Positions 4,334 through 48,289 of a stretch of 64,000 nucleotides of DNA are shown piece after piece; position 1 is the stretch's first letter; the number at the start of each line of letters is the position of its first letter. Made by a program: the position numbers and the translations under genes. The DNA comes from Enterobacteria phage vB_EcoM_IME341. A model generated the notes under the pieces. It was not told where the DNA came from, did no database searches, and saw only the letters and a program-made list of their open reading frames with translations. The stretch is taken from sequence record MH051917, one strand, 5' to 3'.

Positions 4334-4812
4334 ATGACTTTACGTGATAACAGTTTTGTGGCTAAGCCTGAATACATTTCAGGTGTTAAATCTCCTGCAT
4401 TACAAAAGCTCCTTAAGCTAGGGTCCTGTGCAAGTACACCACTTGAAAAGAAGGCAACTTTCGATTTTGCTTGGGCTATGGTAGACGGTATTGATGTAGT
4501 AAGACAGGTAACTTTTTATGCTCCAGGGTCTATTGAGCCTTCGCAGATTATTAATTTGGATGGAAGTAATTATATTACCATCCAACAATGGTATCGTATG
4601 ATGCGCCCGGTTTGGGAATACCCTGAATTCGTTGAAGAATATAATGAAAAAGAACGTATTCGTGAATTGGTGAAAAGTTTTGAATATGCGGCTAAACGCC
4701 ATGGTCAAATGCAATCCGCAGTAACCCTTGGCGATGTTCCTGAAAGTGTTGCTTACGAATCAGGTAAAACCCTTAAAACTTGCCGTGAAGAACTTTATAA
4801 GGAACTTGGCGT

Positions 4813-6770: not shown

Positions 6771-7325
6771 ATGAGTAAGTTCTTTGAAGAGCGTAAGTTT
6801 TACAAGTTCGTTGGTGAATACACTAAAAACAAATTCACTAATAACGGTGCTTATGGCCTCAATACAGCTTTTGCTAAGTATGTGGGTATGAATCCGTTTG
6901 AAGTTGAAATTGATTACCATAATGGGCGTGAACGTGTAAGCCGAATTCGCGTATATGACGAGATGATGTTTGTCGACCCGAGCAAAATGACAGGTAATCC
7001 TGACGATGCAAATAGTGTTCTTTTTAATTCAGCGGGCTTTTTTAGCCATGAATTCGAATACTTTATCGAAGTGGTAGACCCTAAAGAAGTGCAGTTAGTT
7101 TTCCAGAACCCTGAAATCAAACCTATTAAAACTCCAGCCGATTGGAAAGTGCTTATTGTTAAAAATGGTAAGATTGAAGTTCATTCTCGCCATAACACAA
7201 AGGAACAAGCCGATCGTCAGGCTGAAGAGCTTTTGACCAGTTCGTTCCAACAAGTGTGTTATATTGTTAAAGGCGATGTTACCCAAGCTACCACTACCAA
7301 ACAACTTAAGTTGGAGACAATCTAA
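6771..7325 (+). CDS. Hypothetical protein
   Basis: 184-aa ORF with GAGGAAA Shine-Dalgarno; an early promoter-like GTTTAC-N17-TATGAT lies at about 6711-6740. Confidence 0.6.
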   Translation: MSKFFEERKFYKFVGEYTKNKFTNNGAYGLNTAFAKYVGMNPFEVEIDYHNGRERVSRIRVYDEMMFVDPSKMTGNPDDANSVLFNSAGFFSHEFEYFIEVVDPKEVQLVFQNPEIKPIKTPADWKVLIVKNGKIEVHSRHNTKEQADRQAEELLTSSFQQVCYIVKGDVTQATTTKQLKLETI

Positions 7326-9030: not shown

Positions 9031-9354
9031 ATGGAACTTCCTATTAAAGCGGTCGGAGAATATGTTATTCTCGTTTCCGAACCAAAACAAGCTGGTGATG
9101 AAGAAACTACTGCATCTGGTATCGTTATTGGTAAACTTCACCAAGGTGAAATCCCTGAACTTTGTGAAATTTATTCTGTAGGACCTGATGTCCCTGAAGG
9201 TTTTTGTGAAGTAGGCGATTTGACTCCACTTCCTGTTGGTAAGATTGCTAACGTGCCTCATCCGTTGGTTGCATTGGGTATTAAGCAGCCTAAAGAAATT
9301 AAACAGAAATTCGTTACCTGCCACTATAAAGCAATTCCTTGCTTGTATAAATAA
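9031..9354 (+). CDS. 31: Gp31 co-chaperonin (GroES-like) for capsid protein folding
   Basis: 107 aa; near-identical to T4 gp31 over [22 protein letters not shown]...PELC...[21 protein letters not shown]...[32 protein letters not shown]. Confidence 0.95.
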
Positions 9355-23835: not shown

Positions 23836-24958
23836 TTTTAACCTTCGGTGGTTCTTCAATCTTAATAGGCTTACCATTAGTAAACATATAAAGGTTTGTA
23901 ATTGATGTATTGTTACTCACTTCGTGAATAACTTCGTCTACATAAAAATCGTATTGGAACTGGTTTTTAGGGTCATAGAAATTAATCTTATCACCTGGGG
24001 TTAATTCAAAGTTCCCATATACTTTGCAATGAGCATAACCATCGTATTGGGCCATAGTAACCAATCTATCAGCTTCTTCAAATCCGTTTCGGTAGGTATA
24101 ATCAGAATATCCACCTGAACGAGAAACTAATATACTGTTTTGCCCATCACCAAAAGTAATTCGTGTGGCGTTTTTATCCAAGAAGGAATGGGCATATACT
24201 GTAGCATTTTCGTACGGCTTTCTGGTATGCTGGTTAGCTTTAGTTAGCCATTCAAAATCAAATGCGATAGGAGTGTCCATATCTTGGACATATTGGCCTA
24301 TTAAACGAGGCTCACCGACCACAAAATTAATTGGCTCTTGATTAACCATAAATTCGTAGTCCATGATAGAAATACCATCTATATCTTCCCAGACAAATAC
24401 AAATTTATCAGATTCAACGGCCATACCTACTTCTCGTACAAATTCCATATAACGGTCCATTGAATCACACCAAGGAACATTAGGAACGTAAACGTTTATT
24501 CCGTTCAACGGAGGTGCAAGAAGTGGACGGTCTTGGTAAATAACACCAATCATTTCTGTTAATGTTTCTTGAACACTAGGGAAGAACATACGTCCGAATT
24601 TAAGATTTTCTAAAAAGTGGATAGGGGCGAGTTGTATTGTTATGATATTGTCGCCCTTCGAATCCACTCCTACGGCAAAGTGTTTACTTCCATAAATTCT
24701 TGATTGGGTACGTTCTGAGTTAGCGTTCTTAACGGAAACTTGGATAATCTGCTCGCCATCCATTTTAGTATGAAGGTTTTTTGCATCATAAAACTGGAGT
24801 AATCCTTCATTACTACCGTAAAGTCCATCCCTCATTGTTAGGGTAGTAAATGTTGCACCTAGTTCAACAAAACGATGCTCTAACCAGGCGTCATAATCTT
24901 CGTAAAGGCGTATACTAATATTAGGAAAGCCTTCACGCTGCATAGTTTTTGAACTCAT
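23789..24958 (-). CDS. 27: Baseplate hub subunit gp27
   Basis: 389 aa; similarity to T4 gp27 (..YDAW...TTLTMRD.LYG.NEG.LQFYD.KN.HTKMDG). Confidence 0.92.
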
Positions 24959-25707
24959 TTCTTAAGGTCCTTTTCAACCAAAGACAAAGCAATACCGCGT
25001 TCGATTGGAATCATCTGCATAATGCTTTCTAATGAATAATTGTTCTTTACCAGTAAATGGTTTATTTGGTAAAATAAAAATATCTCATCCGGATTGACTA
25101 TAAGCTTAAACACCTCTAAAATATCGGTATACGTAATTGTTCTACGATTACAGCACCCATATTTAAGCTCAAAGTGGATAGGGCTGGTTTGTTTGACTAT
25201 ATCCTCTAAAGTGGATAAGTCTATAGCATCTATTACCGCTAATTGGTCTTCTTCAGAAAGGTCAGTCCAATTATATTTCCCGTTTTCATCTTCTACGGTT
25301 TGGAGGGTGTTCAAAATCAATTCAGATTTGTCGAGATATTCTATTTCCGGAAATTTGAATGTTAGTTTCAAGCCGGCCACTTCAATTGTAGGGTTATCCA
25401 ACTTGGTCTGTTTCAAATTAAATAAAACTTGTCTATCTTTTTCGCACTTACTGCAAGTGTATCGGATAGGAATTTTAGTCTTGCCGAGTGATGACGTATA
25501 CAATTCAATAAACATGTATGGACGCCATGACATAGGGTACTCGCCGAAGTATTCTTCCAGTAACTCATCTAAAATTTGTTTTTGCTCTTCAGGCGATTTA
25601 TTATTCATGTCATTTCGAATCAAAATAAAATCACGATAATCAGCTACTGTAAAAGGTTTAAATCGGTGGACTCCATCGGGCATTTCACAACGTACTATAT
25701 TAGCCAT
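24955..25707 (-). CDS. 51: Baseplate hub assembly catalyst gp51
   Basis: 250 aa (T4 249 aa); ATGA overlap with gene 27; TATAAATA late promoter upstream. Confidence 0.85.
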
Positions 25708-25728
25708 AAGGGTATCCTCTTATTGATG

Positions 25729-25740
25729 TATTTATAAATA
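25729..25740. promoter_or_regulatory. Divergent overlapping late promoters for gene 51 (-) and gene 26 (+)
   Basis: TATTTATAAATA contains TATAAATA on both strands, about 20 nt from each start codon. Confidence 0.7.
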
Positions 25741-25758
25741 AGCTTAAAGGAGAAGACA

Positions 25759-26382
25759 ATGAATTATACTTTTGACGTAAAAATTAAAAACAAAACCATA
25801 AAATGCAGAGCATTTACCCTCAGAGAGTATAAGGACTTGCTCCAAGCTAAATTAGAAGGCAGAATAGAGTCCTTTATCAATGAACTCATTTCGAATTGCA
25901 CAGATGCTCGTGATTTAAACAAGCAAGAATCTGAGCTCCTGGTGATAAACCTGTGGGCCCATTCATTAGCTGAAGTGAATATAGAACGTGAGTGGGTTTG
26001 TAGTTGTGGGCGCTCACAGGTTGTCCCTATGACACTAACTCGCGCAACATTAGGTAAAGAGCCTGATGTTATTAAAGACTTTGGCAACTTTAAAATTGTT
26101 TTCAGATACCCTAAACTCTTTGAAGATAAAAATAGGGCTATGATGGTCGCAGGATGTATCGATTATATTTTAACTTCTACAGGCGAAAAGCTTTTTCTTT
26201 CAGATTTAAGCGATGCGGAACTTGATGACCTTTATTCTGTGATAACAGAAAAAGATATAAAAGAAGTTTATGATGCACTAGTTGCCCCTAAGCCTATTTT
26301 GGCCATACCTATTTCTTGTGAATGTGGTGAACATACTGTCCACGTTATTGAGGGACTTAAAGAGTTCTTTAAGGTGATGTAA
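25759..26382 (+). CDS. 26: Baseplate hub subunit gp26
   Basis: 207 aa (T4 208 aa); divergent from gene 51 with a shared palindromic late promoter; synteny. Confidence 0.8.
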   Translation: MNYTFDVKIKNKTIKCRAFTLREYKDLLQAKLEGRIESFINELISNCTDARDLNKQESELLVINLWAHSLAEVNIEREWVCSCGRSQVVPMTLTRATLGKEPDVIKDFGNFKIVFRYPKLFEDKNRAMMVAGCIDYILTSTGEKLFLSDLSDAELDDLYSVITEKDIKEVYDALVAPKPILAIPISCECGEHTVHVIEGLKEFFKVM

Positions 26383-28210: not shown

Positions 28211-28430
28211 CTTCCTCTTCCTCGTCGTCCATCGACTCCAATTCAGCTCTCTTACCAGCCAATGCATCGCGTACGCTGATATCATCCGAATCACGAAGTT
28301 CGGCTTCCTTACTACGAGTTTTGTAATACTTCTCTAATTCCTCCAGACCTTCCATGGTCTGACACGAACTAATTTTAGACATGAAGCTTTCAATAGATGC
28401 TTCCTGAATAACTTCTTTAAAGGTTTTCAT
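28203..28430 (-). CDS. uvsW.1: UvsW.1 (small acidic partner of the UvsW helicase)
   Basis: 75 aa immediately 3' of uvsW with an acidic C-terminus (ESMDDEEEEDF), as in T4. Confidence 0.8.
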   Translation of the reverse strand: MKTFKEVIQEASIESFMSKISSCQTMEGLEELEKYYKTRSKEAELRDSDDISVRDALAGKRAELESMDDEEEEDF

Positions 28431-29923
28431 AAATCCACCTGTTTCATTACGTAATTAAATTTCTCATCAGCATAACGTTGAATACGTTCTAAAGCGTGTT
28501 TGAGGGCGTAGTTCAAATGAACATATTTCTTTTTAGCCGTAGCTGATTTAGGCTTAACACCCATGTCGTCGATGATATCCCATACTTGTGCTGTTGATTT
28601 AGAAGCATGTTTACGGAGCACACGACCGATTGTCTGGAGTACAATGATTTTGGATTTTACTGGGTGAGCAAATACAACGTGGTGAAGGTTCTTAACGGAA
28701 ATACCAGTAGAGAACACACCATAACTTGCCACAACAATAATACCCTTACCATTTTCCGCCATTACTTTCAGAGCATTACGCGTTTCGGTATTAACTTCAC
28801 CTGATACGTAATAAACTTCTTTATGTTGCTCTTTAACCATTTCAAAAAGAGTTTTACCGTGTTCGATGTTTTTAAACATCAGGAATACGTTCTCTTCTTT
28901 CTTAGCGAGTTTAACAGCTAAATTAGCAACCCATTTATTACGACGAGTAGCCTTAGTAATGACTTTAATTTCTGATTGGTAATCTTTACCTTTCATCTTA
29001 ACAGTGAATTCGTCTGGGTATCGAAGGAAAATACTGTTGATTTTAAGGTCTGTAACCTGTCCTTCTTCCATTAACTGTGAGGTGGATACCGGCTTAAACA
29101 CATCACCAAACAAACCCATATATTGCATTAAATTAGCTTTACCATCTTTTAAAGAACCAGACAAACCAAATTTAAACATACAGTTGGTTAGGCCTTCGAT
29201 GATAGTAGAAATTGATTTACCTGTAGCCAAATGGCATTCATCGTTCATAAACATACCAAACTGAGCAAACCATTCTTTAGGTTGCTTGATAGCTGTTTGG
29301 TAAGTTGAAACATAAATCATTGCATCCGAATCACGGGCAGTACCTGAACGAATTCCAAGCATTGCGGCTTTAGGGAACAACCGATAATCGATGAAGTCAT
29401 TAATCATCTGGTCAACGAGTGCAGTAGTAGGAACTAAGATAAGAATTTTACCTTCATAGTTCTCAACGTAATATCGACTCAGGAGCGCCTGGATTAATGA
29501 TTTACCTGCGGATGTAGGTAAATTCAGAATTGCGCGACGTTTTGTCAGACCGTTGTATACGGCTTCATTCTGATACCAATGGGGCTCAATCTTGGTAGAC
29601 CCTGAATAAATTTCTTGAGAAGCCACCCATGAATCAAAATCTTCACGTGAAATATCTTCCTGTTCAAGAATACGTGGGTCAATCCACAGAGAGTATTCAA
29701 ATTGTTCAGCGAATTTTTTAATCTGCGGAACCAATCCATAAGGAAGTTTACGGTTATAATCCAGAAGACGAATACGACCATCCCATTGCCCATAACGAAA
29801 TTTAGGGTTGAATTTATATCCATCAGCTTCAAAGCTAAAATAGTCTCTGAGTTCGTAGAATGTGGATTCATCACACTCAATACGAACATGACTAAAATTA
29901 TCGAAATGTACTTGAATTTGCAT
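28427..29923 (-). CDS. uvsW: UvsW SF2 DNA helicase
   Basis: 498 aa; near-collinear with T4 UvsW (HFDNFSHVRIECDESTFYELRDYFSFEADGYKFNPKFRYGQWDGRIRLLDYNR; Walker A PTSAGKS; DECH box). Confidence 0.95.
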   Translation of the reverse strand: MQIQVHFDNFSHVRIECDESTFYELRDYFSFEADGYKFNPKFRYGQWDGRIRLLDYNRKLPYGLVPQIKKFAEQFEYSLWIDPRILEQEDISREDFDSWVASQEIYSGSTKIEPHWYQNEAVYNGLTKRRAILNLPTSAGKSLIQALLSRYYVENYEGKILILVPTTALVDQMINDFIDYRLFPKAAMLGIRSGTARDSDAMIYVSTYQTAIKQPKEWFAQFGMFMNDECHLATGKSISTIIEGLTNCMFKFGLSGSLKDGKANLMQYMGLFGDVFKPVSTSQLMEEGQVTDLKINSIFLRYPDEFTVKMKGKDYQSEIKVITKATRRNKWVANLAVKLAKKEENVFLMFKNIEHGKTLFEMVKEQHKEVYYVSGEVNTETRNALKVMAENGKGIIVVASYGVFSTGISVKNLHHVVFAHPVKSKIIVLQTIGRVLRKHASKSTAQVWDIIDDMGVKPKSATAKKKYVHLNYALKHALERIQRYADEKFNYVMKQVDL

Positions 29924-29937
29924 AAGTAATTCTCAGT

Positions 29938-29959
29938 TATAAATATAGTTATATTTATA
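29938..29959. promoter_or_regulatory. Divergent late promoters: TATAAATA (+) for inh/hoc and TATTTATA (= TATAAATA on the minus strand) for uvsW
   Basis: TATAAATA at 29938-29945 on the plus strand; TATTTATA at 29952-29959. Confidence 0.65.
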
Positions 29960-29973
29960 CACTAGAAAAGAGA

Positions 29974-30651
29974 ATGATTATGGACCACCAATATATTGAA
30001 GAGCTTCGTGCACTCGAAGATAAAAAAGAAGCTAAAGCTAAGTTAATCGAATACGGCGAACAGTTCGGTTTAAAACTTAAGAAAACCCGTTCGTTTGATA
30101 ATTTGATTATCGATATCACTGAAGGTCTTAAAGCCCTGGCCGACGAACCACTTCCAGAAACCGAAGGTTTGTCCATTTCTGATTTGATTGATGCTGCTGA
30201 CGAACTTACAGGTTCTAATGAATTTATTGATGGAGCCGAACCTGCTAAAGAAGAAGCAACCCTGTTGTTCGATGCCCCTGAGGCTGTAGTTGAAGTCGTT
30301 GAGGTAGTCGAACTTCCTAAGGTAGAGGTTATTGAAGAGGATGTTCCGTTTGACGAAGAGAAATTCAAAGAGGCTGTAGACAAGGTTGTTGAATTGGAAA
30401 AACCTGTATTCTCTTTACCTGAAAACTTCAGCCCTAATCTTTTGCTTATTGGTAAAAACCCTGGTTACTGTACTGTTCCTTGGTGGATTTATCAATGGAT
30501 TTCTGAGACTCCGGATTGGAAAGAACGTCCGACTGCTTTCCAACATCCTACTGCACACCAAACACTATTCAGCTTGATTTATTACATCAATCGTAATGGG
30601 TCTGTTCTAATACGAGAAACTCGTAACTCATCTTTTGTCACTTTAAAATAA
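29974..30651 (+). CDS. inh: Inh, inhibitor of the prohead protease
   Basis: 225 aa; position upstream of hoc; N-terminus MDHQYIEELRALEDKKEAKAKLIEYGEQFG consistent with T4 Inh. Confidence 0.7.
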   Translation: MIMDHQYIEELRALEDKKEAKAKLIEYGEQFGLKLKKTRSFDNLIIDITEGLKALADEPLPETEGLSISDLIDAADELTGSNEFIDGAEPAKEEATLLFDAPEAVVEVVEVVELPKVEVIEEDVPFDEEKFKEAVDKVVELEKPVFSLPENFSPNLLLIGKNPGYCTVPWWIYQWISETPDWKERPTAFQHPTAHQTLFSLIYYINRNGSVLIRETRNSSFVTLK

Positions 30652-39480: not shown

Positions 39481-40296
39481 TTAAGAAATTCGTGATGCTG
39501 CGATTGCAGACAGGTCCGCGAAGGACAGGGTAGGCTTAGCGCCTTTTTCTTCAACTGCTTCCGAAATGTAATTCAGTGCTGCAGCATCGTCTTCAGTTTT
39601 ATTTATAGCGGCTTCGGTGATTGGTTTTTCAACGTCAGACTGACCTTTAACCATTTCAACGATAGCGCTAATTTTTTTACCAAATGCATCGGAATAATCC
39701 ATGCCTTCTACCAGAGAACTAACTTTTTCTTTCTGAGATTCGGTCAGGTCTTTGGTTGCTTCCGTAACAGCAACTTCACGCTGTACGTAATTGATATAAG
39801 AATCACGCTTACCAACTTCTTCGAACAGGCGAGCGGTTTCGGCTTTCTGTTCAGCCAATTCTTCTTCCATTTCAGCAACAACATCTACTGCTTCTTCTGG
39901 AACAACCACATTGTGTTCAACAAACAGTTCTTTCATACCCATCAACATGGATTCGAACAGTTCGGCTTTAATACCTTTATCAACAGCCAGCTGGTTTTCA
40001 GCCATCCATTCTTTAGCAACGTGGTCAAGGAAACGACCGGCAGCTTCTTGGATTTTCTTATCGGCTTTTTCTTCAGCTTCTTCTTTATTTTTCTCAACTT
40101 CTTCTTCCGCTTTTTCAGCGATTTTAGCGATGTGAGATTCAGCCAGTTTCACGGCGTGTTGCTTGACGGTAGCTTCGAATACAGTGCCGAAAGTTTCTTT
40201 TGCTTCCGGAGAAATATTAACTGATTCGAAAATACTATCAAGAGCAACGGAAGCATCAATATTCTGTGCTTCGGCAATCAGTTGTTCTTTAAGCAT
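39481..40296 (-). CDS. 22: Prohead core scaffold protein gp22
   Basis: 271 aa, acidic and alpha-helical; position between 23 and 21; size as T4 gp22. Confidence 0.85.
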   Translation of the reverse strand: MLKEQLIAEAQNIDASVALDSIFESVNISPEAKETFGTVFEATVKQHAVKLAESHIAKIAEKAEEEVEKNKEEAEEKADKKIQEAAGRFLDHVAKEWMAENQLAVDKGIKAELFESMLMGMKELFVEHNVVVPEEAVDVVAEMEEELAEQKAETARLFEEVGKRDSYINYVQREVAVTEATKDLTESQKEKVSSLVEGMDYSDAFGKKISAIVEMVKGQSDVEKPITEAAINKTEDDAAALNYISEAVEEKGAKPTLSFADLSAIAASRIS

Positions 40297-40962: not shown

Positions 40963-41390
40963 TAGTTAAGTCCAAAGGCTTTACGTTTAGAACGAGCTTT
41001 TTTACGCTTACGTTCAGCACGTACTTGAGTAGACGGATTAGCACGTTTGGTTTTAGATGCTTTGCGAGCAATCTGACGGCGTTTTGCTTTAGATAACCCA
41101 GTCGTTTGATAAGCATTGCGTTGACGGGTTTTAATATCTTTAGTACGAGTAAGCTCACCTTTAGAGGAGACATGCTTAACGATAAATTCGTTAAGAGCCA
41201 TATTTTCATTCAAAGAAGCAATGGCAATAGCTGTATCGATATCACCATCAGCAATCATGTTCTCTACAAGATTATTTATATCGCTTTTCTCGAGTGCTTC
41301 AGAAAGAATAGCAAAACGTCCCTGTGCTTCTAGAATTTTGGCCTCTACGCTTTCAAGAGTTAATTCGTAATCATCAGGGATAAGGAACAT
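40962..41390 (-). CDS. 68: Prohead core protein gp68
   Basis: 142 aa (T4 141 aa); basic C-terminus; ATGA overlap with gene 21. Confidence 0.75.
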
Positions 41391-43967: not shown

Positions 43968-45950
43968 TTATACTAACGGTCCAATCAATTCATCAAAATC
44001 AGCACCAGTGCTCGTTGCAACGAAGTTCAACGTGATGTAGTTAATAGAACGAGAAGGTTTAACGTAGATATTAGCAATAAACTCATTACGGTCGATAACC
44101 GCAGGGGTGTTCACTGTAGTATCACAAACCACACGTCCTTCATAAATCCCACCAAGTGCCTTAATACCATCTAAGTACTGAGAAACTTCCATACGGAAGC
44201 TTGAACGAGTGAAGTTGTCGTTCAATTCAAACAGTTTATATTTAGAGGCATCGCCGATATTTTTCTTAAGCATGTTGAACAGACGGCGAACGTTAATGTG
44301 GTCCATCGGAGATGGAACTTTAGTTGCAGTCTTATCACCAAACAATACGAAGCCATCACCGCCGGCAAAACCGACAACTGGGTTAATAGCTTCTTGGTAC
44401 ATGCGGTCACGTTGTGCTTGACGTGGTTCAATTGCCAATTTCAGAACGTTAAGAATCTGACCACGGTTATAACCAGCTGGAGACATCCAAGGCTGAGAAA
44501 CATCATCTGTACGCGCACACAAACCGGCCATATCGGCGGCCAGAGGCACCCAACGGTTTACGTCATTATATTTGTCATACTGATATTTATAGTTACCGTC
44601 AATAGCAGCATAAGTGGTGCTAATGTTCATATTGTTGCTTTCAAACAATCCTGAACCAGTACGCCAGTCGATAAGGTTATCTACTGCACGAGTCAGTGGA
44701 ACGTTAACCAAAAGACCTTTAGGAGGAGAAATAAATGCTAAGCAATCCTGACGTTCATCAGCAATACTAACAACGTGTTTCTGGACGGTAGAAGCAACTT
44801 CATCACCTTCACCAGCAACAGCACCAGCAATCAAAAGGTTAATATGGAGGGCTTCACGATCGGCAAACAAATCCCAACCCTGCATCAAATCGCCTGCGGT
44901 AACTTTATCGTTGGCAGAAACACCACCCATCAAATTAATGATACCACTGAAGCCTTTTGGCCAGTTCAGAGAAGTTGCATAGATGTAATTGGAAGTACCT
45001 TTAGCGAAATAGTCATCAAGATAAATGTTATTACCGTAAACGTCTTTTTCGCCTTCTTTGGTAGAAAGTACGACAGATTCTACGATAGCGCCATCACGAC
45101 GAACAATAATAGCGTATTGGTCTTCTGTTTGAGGACCGTAATTAAATACCGCCTTGGCAATAGAAGCACGAGAACCACCGCCTGGATAAATATCCAGCAT
45201 TTTAGTAGAACCGGCATCATAAGCTGCTTTAGAAACAATTTCTACTTCTAAGGTAGAACCAATTTCGCCTGGATAAAGAGCAACTACGCCTGGCATAGCA
45301 AATTTCTTAAGAGACGCTTGGAATTCAAGAGAAGTAATAGCTTCTTCACTATTCTCGGCTTCGGTCAAAAGAATACCGGAATCGGTAACAATTTTGCCTA
45401 CGGTAATAGTACCAGAAACACCAGAAGAAGCGGAAGTAACTTCAGCCGTCCAAGCCGGACCCAGGGTAGGATACTGGTTTAAAGAACGTGCATAAGTAAT
45501 AATTTTTGCCGATGGGATAAACACAGAAAGAATTTTACCGTCTGTATCTACAGAAGTAACACGGCCTTCAGATTCGATTACAGTTTGGTTATATTTAATA
45601 TTGATTTTATCGCCTACTGCATAGTTAGAACCGGCCGTAGTAATAGTGGTTTCGATATTACCGGCAATAGGAGATGCGTTTTTAGCAAACTCACGACTAA
45701 CAACACGAACTGTACGAAGGTCGTTACCATACTGGAGGAAGTTCATACCAGACATAAAATAATCTGCTACTTCGTTATTAGGACCTCCAAACAAATCCAC
45801 CAGTTCAACTTCGTTAGTAATTTGAGTTACCTGGAAAGCAGGGCCCCACTGGAATTTACCAACCAGCGCTGCACGACCCGTTGCGTTACGAACGACAGTA
45901 CTCTGTACGGACGTTTCTTTGAGCTCAATGCCCGGTGATAATAAAGCCAT
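43968..45950 (-). CDS. 18: Tail sheath protein gp18
   Basis: 660 aa (T4 659 aa); MALLSPGIELKETSVQ... ; synteny; late promoter upstream. Confidence 0.93.
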   Translation of the reverse strand: MALLSPGIELKETSVQSTVVRNATGRAALVGKFQWGPAFQVTQITNEVELVDLFGGPNNEVADYFMSGMNFLQYGNDLRTVRVVSREFAKNASPIAGNIETTITTAGSNYAVGDKINIKYNQTVIESEGRVTSVDTDGKILSVFIPSAKIITYARSLNQYPTLGPAWTAEVTSASSGVSGTITVGKIVTDSGILLTEAENSEEAITSLEFQASLKKFAMPGVVALYPGEIGSTLEVEIVSKAAYDAGSTKMLDIYPGGGSRASIAKAVFNYGPQTEDQYAIIVRRDGAIVESVVLSTKEGEKDVYGNNIYLDDYFAKGTSNYIYATSLNWPKGFSGIINLMGGVSANDKVTAGDLMQGWDLFADREALHINLLIAGAVAGEGDEVASTVQKHVVSIADERQDCLAFISPPKGLLVNVPLTRAVDNLIDWRTGSGLFESNNMNISTTYAAIDGNYKYQYDKYNDVNRWVPLAADMAGLCARTDDVSQPWMSPAGYNRGQILNVLKLAIEPRQAQRDRMYQEAINPVVGFAGGDGFVLFGDKTATKVPSPMDHINVRRLFNMLKKNIGDASKYKLFELNDNFTRSSFRMEVSQYLDGIKALGGIYEGRVVCDTTVNTPAVIDRNEFIANIYVKPSRSINYITLNFVATSTGADFDELIGPLV

Positions 45951-45981: not shown

Positions 45982-48289
<2,308 letters not shown>

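Follow-up and report, generated by a model that had tools for sequence, protein, structure and literature searches.

Two divergent gene pairs in a Dhakavirus genome

The window, by which we mean the whole stretch of DNA analysed here, comprises 64,000 nt of Enterobacteria phage vB_EcoM_IME341 (record MH051917). The region under study is 93–98% identical to the DNA of annotated Dhakavirus phages (IME08 97.6%, IME281 95.7%, JS10 93%), in which the genes concerned are annotated as 51, 26, uvsW and inh, and PHROG and Pfam scans agree with these assignments (baseplate hub, helicase, inhibitor of prohead protease). Judged by these matches, the window belongs to a T4-like Dhakavirus and not to T4 itself, whose gp26 shares only about 50% identity with the one encoded here. 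A first-pass annotation, made from the letters alone, had named the divergent genes at the first locus 51 (minus strand) and 26 (plus strand), and both the names and the layout agree with the DNA identity and the family matches. The features of this locus are the following:

25729..25740, both strands: 12-nt perfect palindrome TATTTATAAATA, two late-promoter boxes that have their first four bases (TATA) in common
25733..25740, plus strand: late-promoter box TATAAATA (−13 to −6, geometry from Nolan et al. 2006) of gene 26, then gene 25; palindrome positions 9–12 are unique to this box
25729..25736, minus strand: late-promoter box TATAAATA (−13 to −6) of gene 51, then the hub genes 27-28-29; palindrome positions 1–4 are unique to this box
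25746, plus strand: A, predicted by box geometry as +1 of gene 26 transcription; 13-nt leader
25723, minus strand: A, predicted by box geometry as +1 of gene 51 transcription; 16-nt leader
25747..25752, plus strand: Shine-Dalgarno sequence AAGGAG of gene 26; GGAG is kept on the gene 26 side in related phages
25715..25719, minus strand: Shine-Dalgarno sequence GAGGA of gene 51; CTCC is kept on the gene 51 side in related phages
24955..25707, minus strand: gene 51, baseplate hub assembly protein, 250 aa (ORF, DNA identity, PHROG/Pfam); paralog of gp26
25759..26382, plus strand: gene 26, baseplate hub protein or chaperone, 207 aa (ORF, DNA identity, PHROG/Pfam); paralog of gp51

The palindrome lies exactly where it had been reported, with the box on both strands and a 4-bp overlap of the two boxes at 25733–25736. 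The distance from box to start codon, given earlier as about 20 nt, measures 21 nt for gene 51 (ATG at 25707, minus strand) and 18 nt for gene 26 (ATG at 25759, plus strand). The predicted starts of the two transcripts are 23 bp apart, and the 51-nt spacer is fully used, consisting of the 16-nt leader, 5 nt, the 12-mer, another 5 nt and the 13-nt leader.

A similar arrangement had been noted between uvsW and inh, and here too sequence and gene identities agree with the positions given. Its features are:

29938..29945, plus strand: late-promoter box TATAAATA of inh/hoc
29952..29959, minus strand: late-promoter box TATAAATA of uvsW, which reads TATTTATA on the plus strand
29946..29951: 6-nt spacer, its first base the predicted uvsW +1 (29946, minus strand) and its last base the predicted inh +1 (29951, plus strand)
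28427..29923, minus strand: uvsW, helicase, 498 aa
29974..30651, plus strand: inh, inhibitor of the prohead protease gp21, 225 aa

The site thus reads TATAAATA-N6-TATTTATA at 29938–29959, inside a spacer of 50 nt, and each box is 28 nt from its start codon (inh 29974; uvsW 29923). The boxes are crossed, the plus-strand box standing to the left of the minus-strand box, so that each is located within the first nucleotides of the opposite predicted transcript and the two predicted starts, both A on their own strand, are just 5 nt apart. Both predicted leaders begin with AUAUUUAUA. The pair had been described as non-overlapping, which is true of the boxes themselves and not of the promoter complexes: with this geometry, open complexes at uvsW/inh would overlap even more than those at the 51/26 palindrome.

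The start of inh deserves a separate remark. Two ATG codons are available in the same frame, at 29974 and 29980 (within 29974–29982) and 6 nt from each other, and comparison with T4 Inh (MIDKDY...) makes the first the likely start; the second is an alternative start, and a purine-rich GAGA stands nearer to the optimal distance from it.

The boxes match T4-type late promoters

The T4 late promoter is an 8-bp element, TATAAATA, at −13 to −6, and has no −35 element (Nolan et al. 2006 and a review); A at −13 is a common variant, found in 9 of 50 listed T4 late promoters according to the review, which also cautions that not all of the 50 have been shown to be active in vivo. Promoters of this type further have an AT-rich stretch from box to start, initiate about 6 nt past the box, and depend for transcription on gp55, gp33, the gp45 clamp and replication. 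In the window, consensus boxes stand 18–28 nt upstream of genes 51, 26, uvsW and inh and face them, the T4 orthologues of these genes are expressed late according to reviews, all four promoters have A as their predicted +1, and neither a sigma-70-like promoter nor a terminator-like site was found in the 51/26 or the uvsW/inh spacer. The exact consensus on both strands at both sites upholds the earlier identification of these boxes as T4 late promoters, as do the previous annotation of the 51/26 pair in T4 and its prediction in RB69 described below. The genes 55, 33 and 45 do not lie in the window; according to the review, gp55 is encoded by every T4-related genome. We conclude that both sites are very probably pairs of opposite-facing, gp55-dependent T4-type late promoters that serve divergent late operons, with the start positions of all four promoters being predictions from box geometry.

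The distribution of the box in the window was compared with chance expectation. There are 16 exact boxes against 7.35 expected, and nine of these lie mostly within the non-coding DNA, which makes up 4.9% of the window and for which 0.8 would be expected from spacer composition (binomial P = 1.5e-8). Two further boxes span the 3′ end of the gene that lies upstream of them. All of these 11 non-coding or gene-edge boxes face a start codon 18–52 nt downstream, and their predicted +1 is A in 10 cases. A first-order Markov model predicts 0.03 occurrences of the exact 12-mer per window; this exact-match expectation was used instead of a search allowing one mismatch, which was uninformative (0.91 expected).

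The remaining five exact boxes lie inside coding regions, at 9346–9353 on the plus strand and at 39600–39607, 41273–41280, 44584–44591 and 46482–46489 on the minus strand. The four on the minus strand point the same way as the late structural genes around them. T4 is known to have internal late promoters; these boxes may also be noise, as about six are expected by chance in coding DNA.

Previous descriptions in T4 and related phages

The T4 GenBank record M77695 (Gruidl et al. 1991, Virology 184:359) contains a TATA_box for protein 51 at 768–774 and one for protein 26 at 772–779, which are the overlapping halves of the 51/26 palindrome. T4 and the window share the identical 12-mer TATTTATAAATA, the flanking genes and their orientation, with a spacer of 50 versus 51 nt; they differ in genus, in box-to-start distances (by 3–4 nt) and in two extra variant boxes that are annotated downstream for gene 26 in T4 and are absent from the window. 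On the T4 genome (NC_000866), the predicted starts correspond to about 116467(+) for gene 51, 116444(−) for gene 26, 112029(−) for inh and 112034(+) for segE/uvsW. For RB69, Nolan et al. 2006 (Additional file 5) predicted Pl:118620(+) and Pl:118672(−) computationally, and we located both on the 26/51 spacer of RB69, where the 12-mer is present in exact form. The overlapping 51/26 late promoters are therefore already known, having been annotated in T4 decades ago and predicted in RB69. Overlapping promoters reportedly direct the divergent transcription of the T4 base plate gene cluster, as Scarlato and colleagues are said to have described in 1989.

The same design occurs at another gene pair in Aeromonas phage Aeh1. 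The computational predictions Pl:122785 and Pl:122835, one in each direction (Nolan et al. 2006), fall on a 14-nt palindrome, TATTTAGCTAAATA, between the divergent late genes 4 and 48 (segment 137–188). This palindrome differs from the one in the window in its consensus, CTAAATA, and in the gene pair, and the comparison suggests that the palindromic design recurs with a different consensus and different genes.

For the second site, reviews list a T4 late promoter upstream of inh, a segE promoter in the upstream non-coding region and expression of UvsW from a late promoter. An RNA-seq study on DksA contains nothing on these genes. The T4 inh/segE-uvsW region resembles the window in having [T/A]ATAAATA-N6-TATTTATA upstream of inh. 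It differs in that the inh-facing box of T4 is the variant AATAAATA and segE stands between the promoter and uvsW, whereas the window has a consensus box and no segE.

Conservation of the 51/26 palindrome

The divergent 51/26 layout is kept in T4 and in representatives of all eleven further genera that were compared. Outside Dhakavirus, the exact 12-mer was found in 10 of the 12 genera examined. It is present in Tequatro-, Gapriver-, Winkler-, Gelderland-, Jiaoda-, Mosig-, Muldoon-, Hadassah- (Acinetobacter host) and Bragavirus (Proteus host), and also in RB69; within Dhakavirus, it is also carried by IME08. Viral contigs were scanned as well. A single-protein scan gave only five near-identical loci and was replaced by one using a gp26 alignment, which gave 33 loci, 30 of them with the exact 12-mer. 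The 12-mer persists while gp26 identity drops to 31–36%.

We also compared 18 diverged contexts, which differ pairwise at ≥8 of 60 flank positions and have a mean flank identity of 36%. Information content is 2.0 bits at all 12 positions and 0.16–0.18 bits at the adjoining bases; as these contexts were picked for having the 12-mer, the informative parts are the sharp boundary and, from the wider samples, the 30 of 33 loci and the genus counts. Conservation ends exactly at the edges of the 12-mer, and upstream of either box nothing else is conserved in the 18 contexts besides the opposite box and its ribosome binding site. In these genomes, few conserved non-coding blocks are as sharply delimited as the 12-mer. 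Positions 1–4, which belong to the gene 51 box only, and positions 9–12, which belong to the gene 26 box only, are invariant across the 18 contexts, which shows that purifying selection acts on both boxes, not just one, and hence on both directions at this site; this is evidence of selection and distinct from direct proof of use. Independently of the boxes, A stands at the predicted +1 in 15 of the 18 contexts on the gene 26 side and in 17 on the gene 51 side.

Departures from the palindrome were seen in two lineages. In Krischvirus (ECD7 and three contigs), a 1-nt insertion changes the palindrome to TATTTATAAAATA; the gene 51 box is kept, and for gene 26 there is at best ACTAAATA further along in a longer spacer of 70 nt (ECD7 segment 631–700). 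Aeromonas phage 44RR has a 10-nt palindrome, TATTTAAATA, in which only the TAAATA cores are kept, with T at −12 in both directions (segment 637–682); the model of Nolan et al. 2006 called no late promoter there. Exact overlap of the boxes is therefore strongly preferred and not obligatory.

Conservation and remodelling of the uvsW/inh site

The arrangement [T/A]ATAAATA-N6-TATTTATA is kept in seven genera, represented by the window, T4, VR7, APCEc01, CBH8, CGG4-1 and a Jiaodavirus. Throughout these, the sixth base of N6, the predicted inh +1, is A, and the first base, at which uvsW transcription is predicted to start on the opposite strand, is either T or C. Krischvirus has both boxes separated by an 11-nt spacer, and 44RR retains the uvsW-facing box only, corresponding to the prediction Pl:113212(+) of Nolan et al. 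2006. The conservation shows that both boxes of the uvsW/inh site are under purifying selection as well.

In Acinetobacter phage AbTZA1, the uvsW/inh spacer (segment 3816–3899) has the boxes in reverse order and back to back, TATTTATA-N6-TATAAATA. The layout of this site, crossed in the enterobacterial phages, has thus been remodelled at least once, whereas that of the 51/26 palindrome has not been.

A homing endonuclease gene is located directly downstream of the uvsW-facing late promoter, before uvsW, in T4 (segE; inh-segE-uvsW segment 4008–4678) and in the Gelderlandvirus Salmonella phage CGG4-1 (segment 3883–4571). The window and most other genera are without an endonuclease insert at uvsW/inh. 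It seems that insertions have landed at the bidirectional promoter more than once, which provides the endonuclease with a late promoter.

Alternative explanations for the symmetry

It is conceivable that in each pair just one box works, the other being a by-product of the self-complementarity of the motif and its gene being transcribed by read-through or from another promoter. The motif TATAAATA starts with the palindromic TATA, so that half of a reverse box is already given; Krischvirus keeps the gene 51-facing box only and 44RR the uvsW-facing box only; and in vivo verification is incomplete for the listed T4 late promoters, as the review states. A by-product would not explain the invariance of the positions specific to each box in the 18 contexts next to neighbours at 0.16–0.18 bits, nor the predicted +1 kept as A on both sides. 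Read-through into 51 or 26 is impossible because the genes diverge from their spacer, the spacer is devoid of a sigma-70-like promoter that could take over, and the T4 depositors annotated both boxes. We therefore regard a single working box per pair as very improbable. Another possibility is that the palindrome is kept mainly as the site of a dimeric DNA-binding protein that regulates both genes, with the boxes secondary, and we rate this too as highly improbable. Perfect dyad symmetry is typical of dimer operators, and T4 DsbA, whose gene is widely conserved beside gene 33, is reported to bind AT-rich sites that overlap two late promoters. Yet the conserved block is exactly the union of two 8-mers and extends no further, and the boxes at uvsW/inh vary in spacing and order (N6, N11, swapped), which fits promoters and not a fixed operator. 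Moreover, the published affinity of DsbA is micromolar, its gene is non-essential and no effect was found in vitro, and the equivalent palindrome of Aeh1 is made from the consensus of that phage, CTAAATA.

The symmetry might also act at the level of DNA or RNA structure, as a cruciform, hairpin or terminator, or be a chance match in spacers with an AT content of 64%. At the site between uvsW and inh, a weak hairpin in the DNA is indeed possible (−4.1 to −5.9 kcal/mol, z about −3), but this hairpin consists of the two inverted boxes, of which each predicted transcript holds one arm only; the 12-mer itself is without a predicted fold (0 kcal/mol), and both spacers are free of terminator-like sites. 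Compensatory changes preserving the pairing without the TATAAATA sequence were not seen in related phages. A chance match is at odds with the 0.03 occurrences expected per window combined with conservation across genera, and the probability that either structure or chance accounts for the symmetry appears negligible.

A model for opposite-facing late promoters that share one site

The reading as pairs of late promoters has consequences for polymerase occupancy. In T4, gp55 reads the box via the melted non-template strand, with the bases at −12, −9 and −8 flipped, gp33 contacts upstream DNA, and gp45 encircles the DNA at the upstream end of the complex, adding 13 bp to the upstream footprint. 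At each of the four promoters, gp55 on the host RNA polymerase would accordingly read the box, and gp33 would tether the complex to the gp45 sliding clamp upstream. A complex covering roughly −50 to +20 would hide the opposite promoter, allowing one polymerase per site at a time; at 51/26, the two bubbles are predicted to open from neighbouring base pairs (25734 rightwards, 25735 leftwards). Depending on its orientation, a clamp could activate one of the two directions only. The palindrome would be maintained because any change inside it destroys at least one promoter.

The first-pass annotation had proposed mutually exclusive or competing occupancy at overlapping divergent late promoters. As the predicted starts are 23 bp (51/26) or 5 bp (uvsW/inh) apart and one complex would cover the other promoter, occupancy should be mutually exclusive, which is a sound physical inference from the footprint and structural data for T4 and from bidirectional promoters in E. 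coli. The latter, described for sigma-70 (Warman, Grainger and colleagues; NAR 2026, PMC12825309), resemble the pairs studied here in having an overlapping, pseudo-symmetric −10-type element and divergent starts; 23 bp is among their common start separations, and one polymerase binding event excludes the other (PMC12825309). They differ from the phage promoters, which depend on gp55, lack a −35 element and use an 8-mer element, arranged here as a perfect palindrome. A DNA-tracking sliding clamp whose orientation imposes polarity is a further peculiarity of T4-type late promoters and has no counterpart at sigma-70 promoters. In E. coli, steric exclusion at bidirectional promoters alters output only at high promoter activity or occupancy (PMC12825309), and competition with a regulatory consequence is plausible for strongly activated late promoters.

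A more far-reaching idea is that the 51/26 palindrome works as an orientation-sensing toggle, the ratio of gene 51-operon to gene 26-operon transcripts reporting which strand supplies the gp45 clamps (leading or lagging, or fork direction). It would build on the property of gp45 clamps to activate only promoters whose non-transcribed strand bore the loading nick or primer end. We consider such a toggle improbable. If true, the stoichiometry of the hub-assembly proteins would be coupled to replication geometry, and selection for strict either/or firing, not mutational entrapment, would have frozen the 4-bp overlap in at least ten genera.

Genes 51 and 26 are head-to-head paralogs

Both gp51 and gp26 match phrog_150 and Pfam PF12322 over almost their full length. 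Their sequences align collinearly (E = 3e-5 in the window phage, E = 2e-6 in T4), and profiles built from 11 and 12 genera, respectively, match in hhalign over 190 columns, beginning at residue 7 in each protein, with 99.6% probability (E = 2e-23); gp51 is longer by about 47 C-terminal residues. On the strength of the common families and the profile match, genes 51 and 26 are a head-to-head paralog pair with the dyad of the palindrome as its axis, and the palindrome may date from the duplication that gave rise to them. The paralogy is implicit in curated databases through the common Pfam family. A literature search for a link between gp51/gp26 paralogy or duplication and the palindrome returned unrelated phages only, which is weak evidence of novelty.

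Concerted evolution by gene conversion between the two arms of the spacer was considered and rejected: mirror similarity within and between lineages is nearly the same (11.1 vs 11.6 matches, permutation P = 0.88). Since the arms are no more mirror-similar within lineages than between them, the present symmetry outside the 12-mer probably stems from a leader grammar common to both genes (A start, A-rich run, GGAG, ATG) and not from ongoing gene conversion. As a separate observation, the 45-nt 51/26 spacer of Proteus phage PM2 (segment 653–697) is a nearly perfect palindrome with the arms AGTGTCTCC...GGAGACACT, in which 16 of 24 positions are mirrored; PM2 is the sole lineage of 16 with symmetry that extended.

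Start codon annotation in related records

In the IME08 record, the annotated starts of genes 51 and 26 overlap by 22 nt (2738–2759) and the start of inh is 6 nt from uvsW (6923–6929), so that the annotated starts absorb the promoter regions into coding sequence. In the CBH8 record, the uvsW start is 281 nt from inh (4500–4782) and the conserved boxes stand about 250 nt upstream of that start. The start codons in these two records are probably mis-set, and the promoter boxes could correct them.

Conclusion

The work presented here is mainly a confirmation, in that reading the sequence alone recovered a classic regulatory element. With it, the known range of this element grows beyond T4 to include Dhakavirus and about ten other genera, at gp26 identities as low as about 31–36%. 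The 12-mer is a reliable landmark for annotating where genes 51 and 26 really start; in some records, their start codons are probably mis-set. As a symmetric core promoter that is combined with a polar, clamp-dependent activator, the 51/26 palindrome would offer a compact natural template for direction choice at bidirectional promoters.
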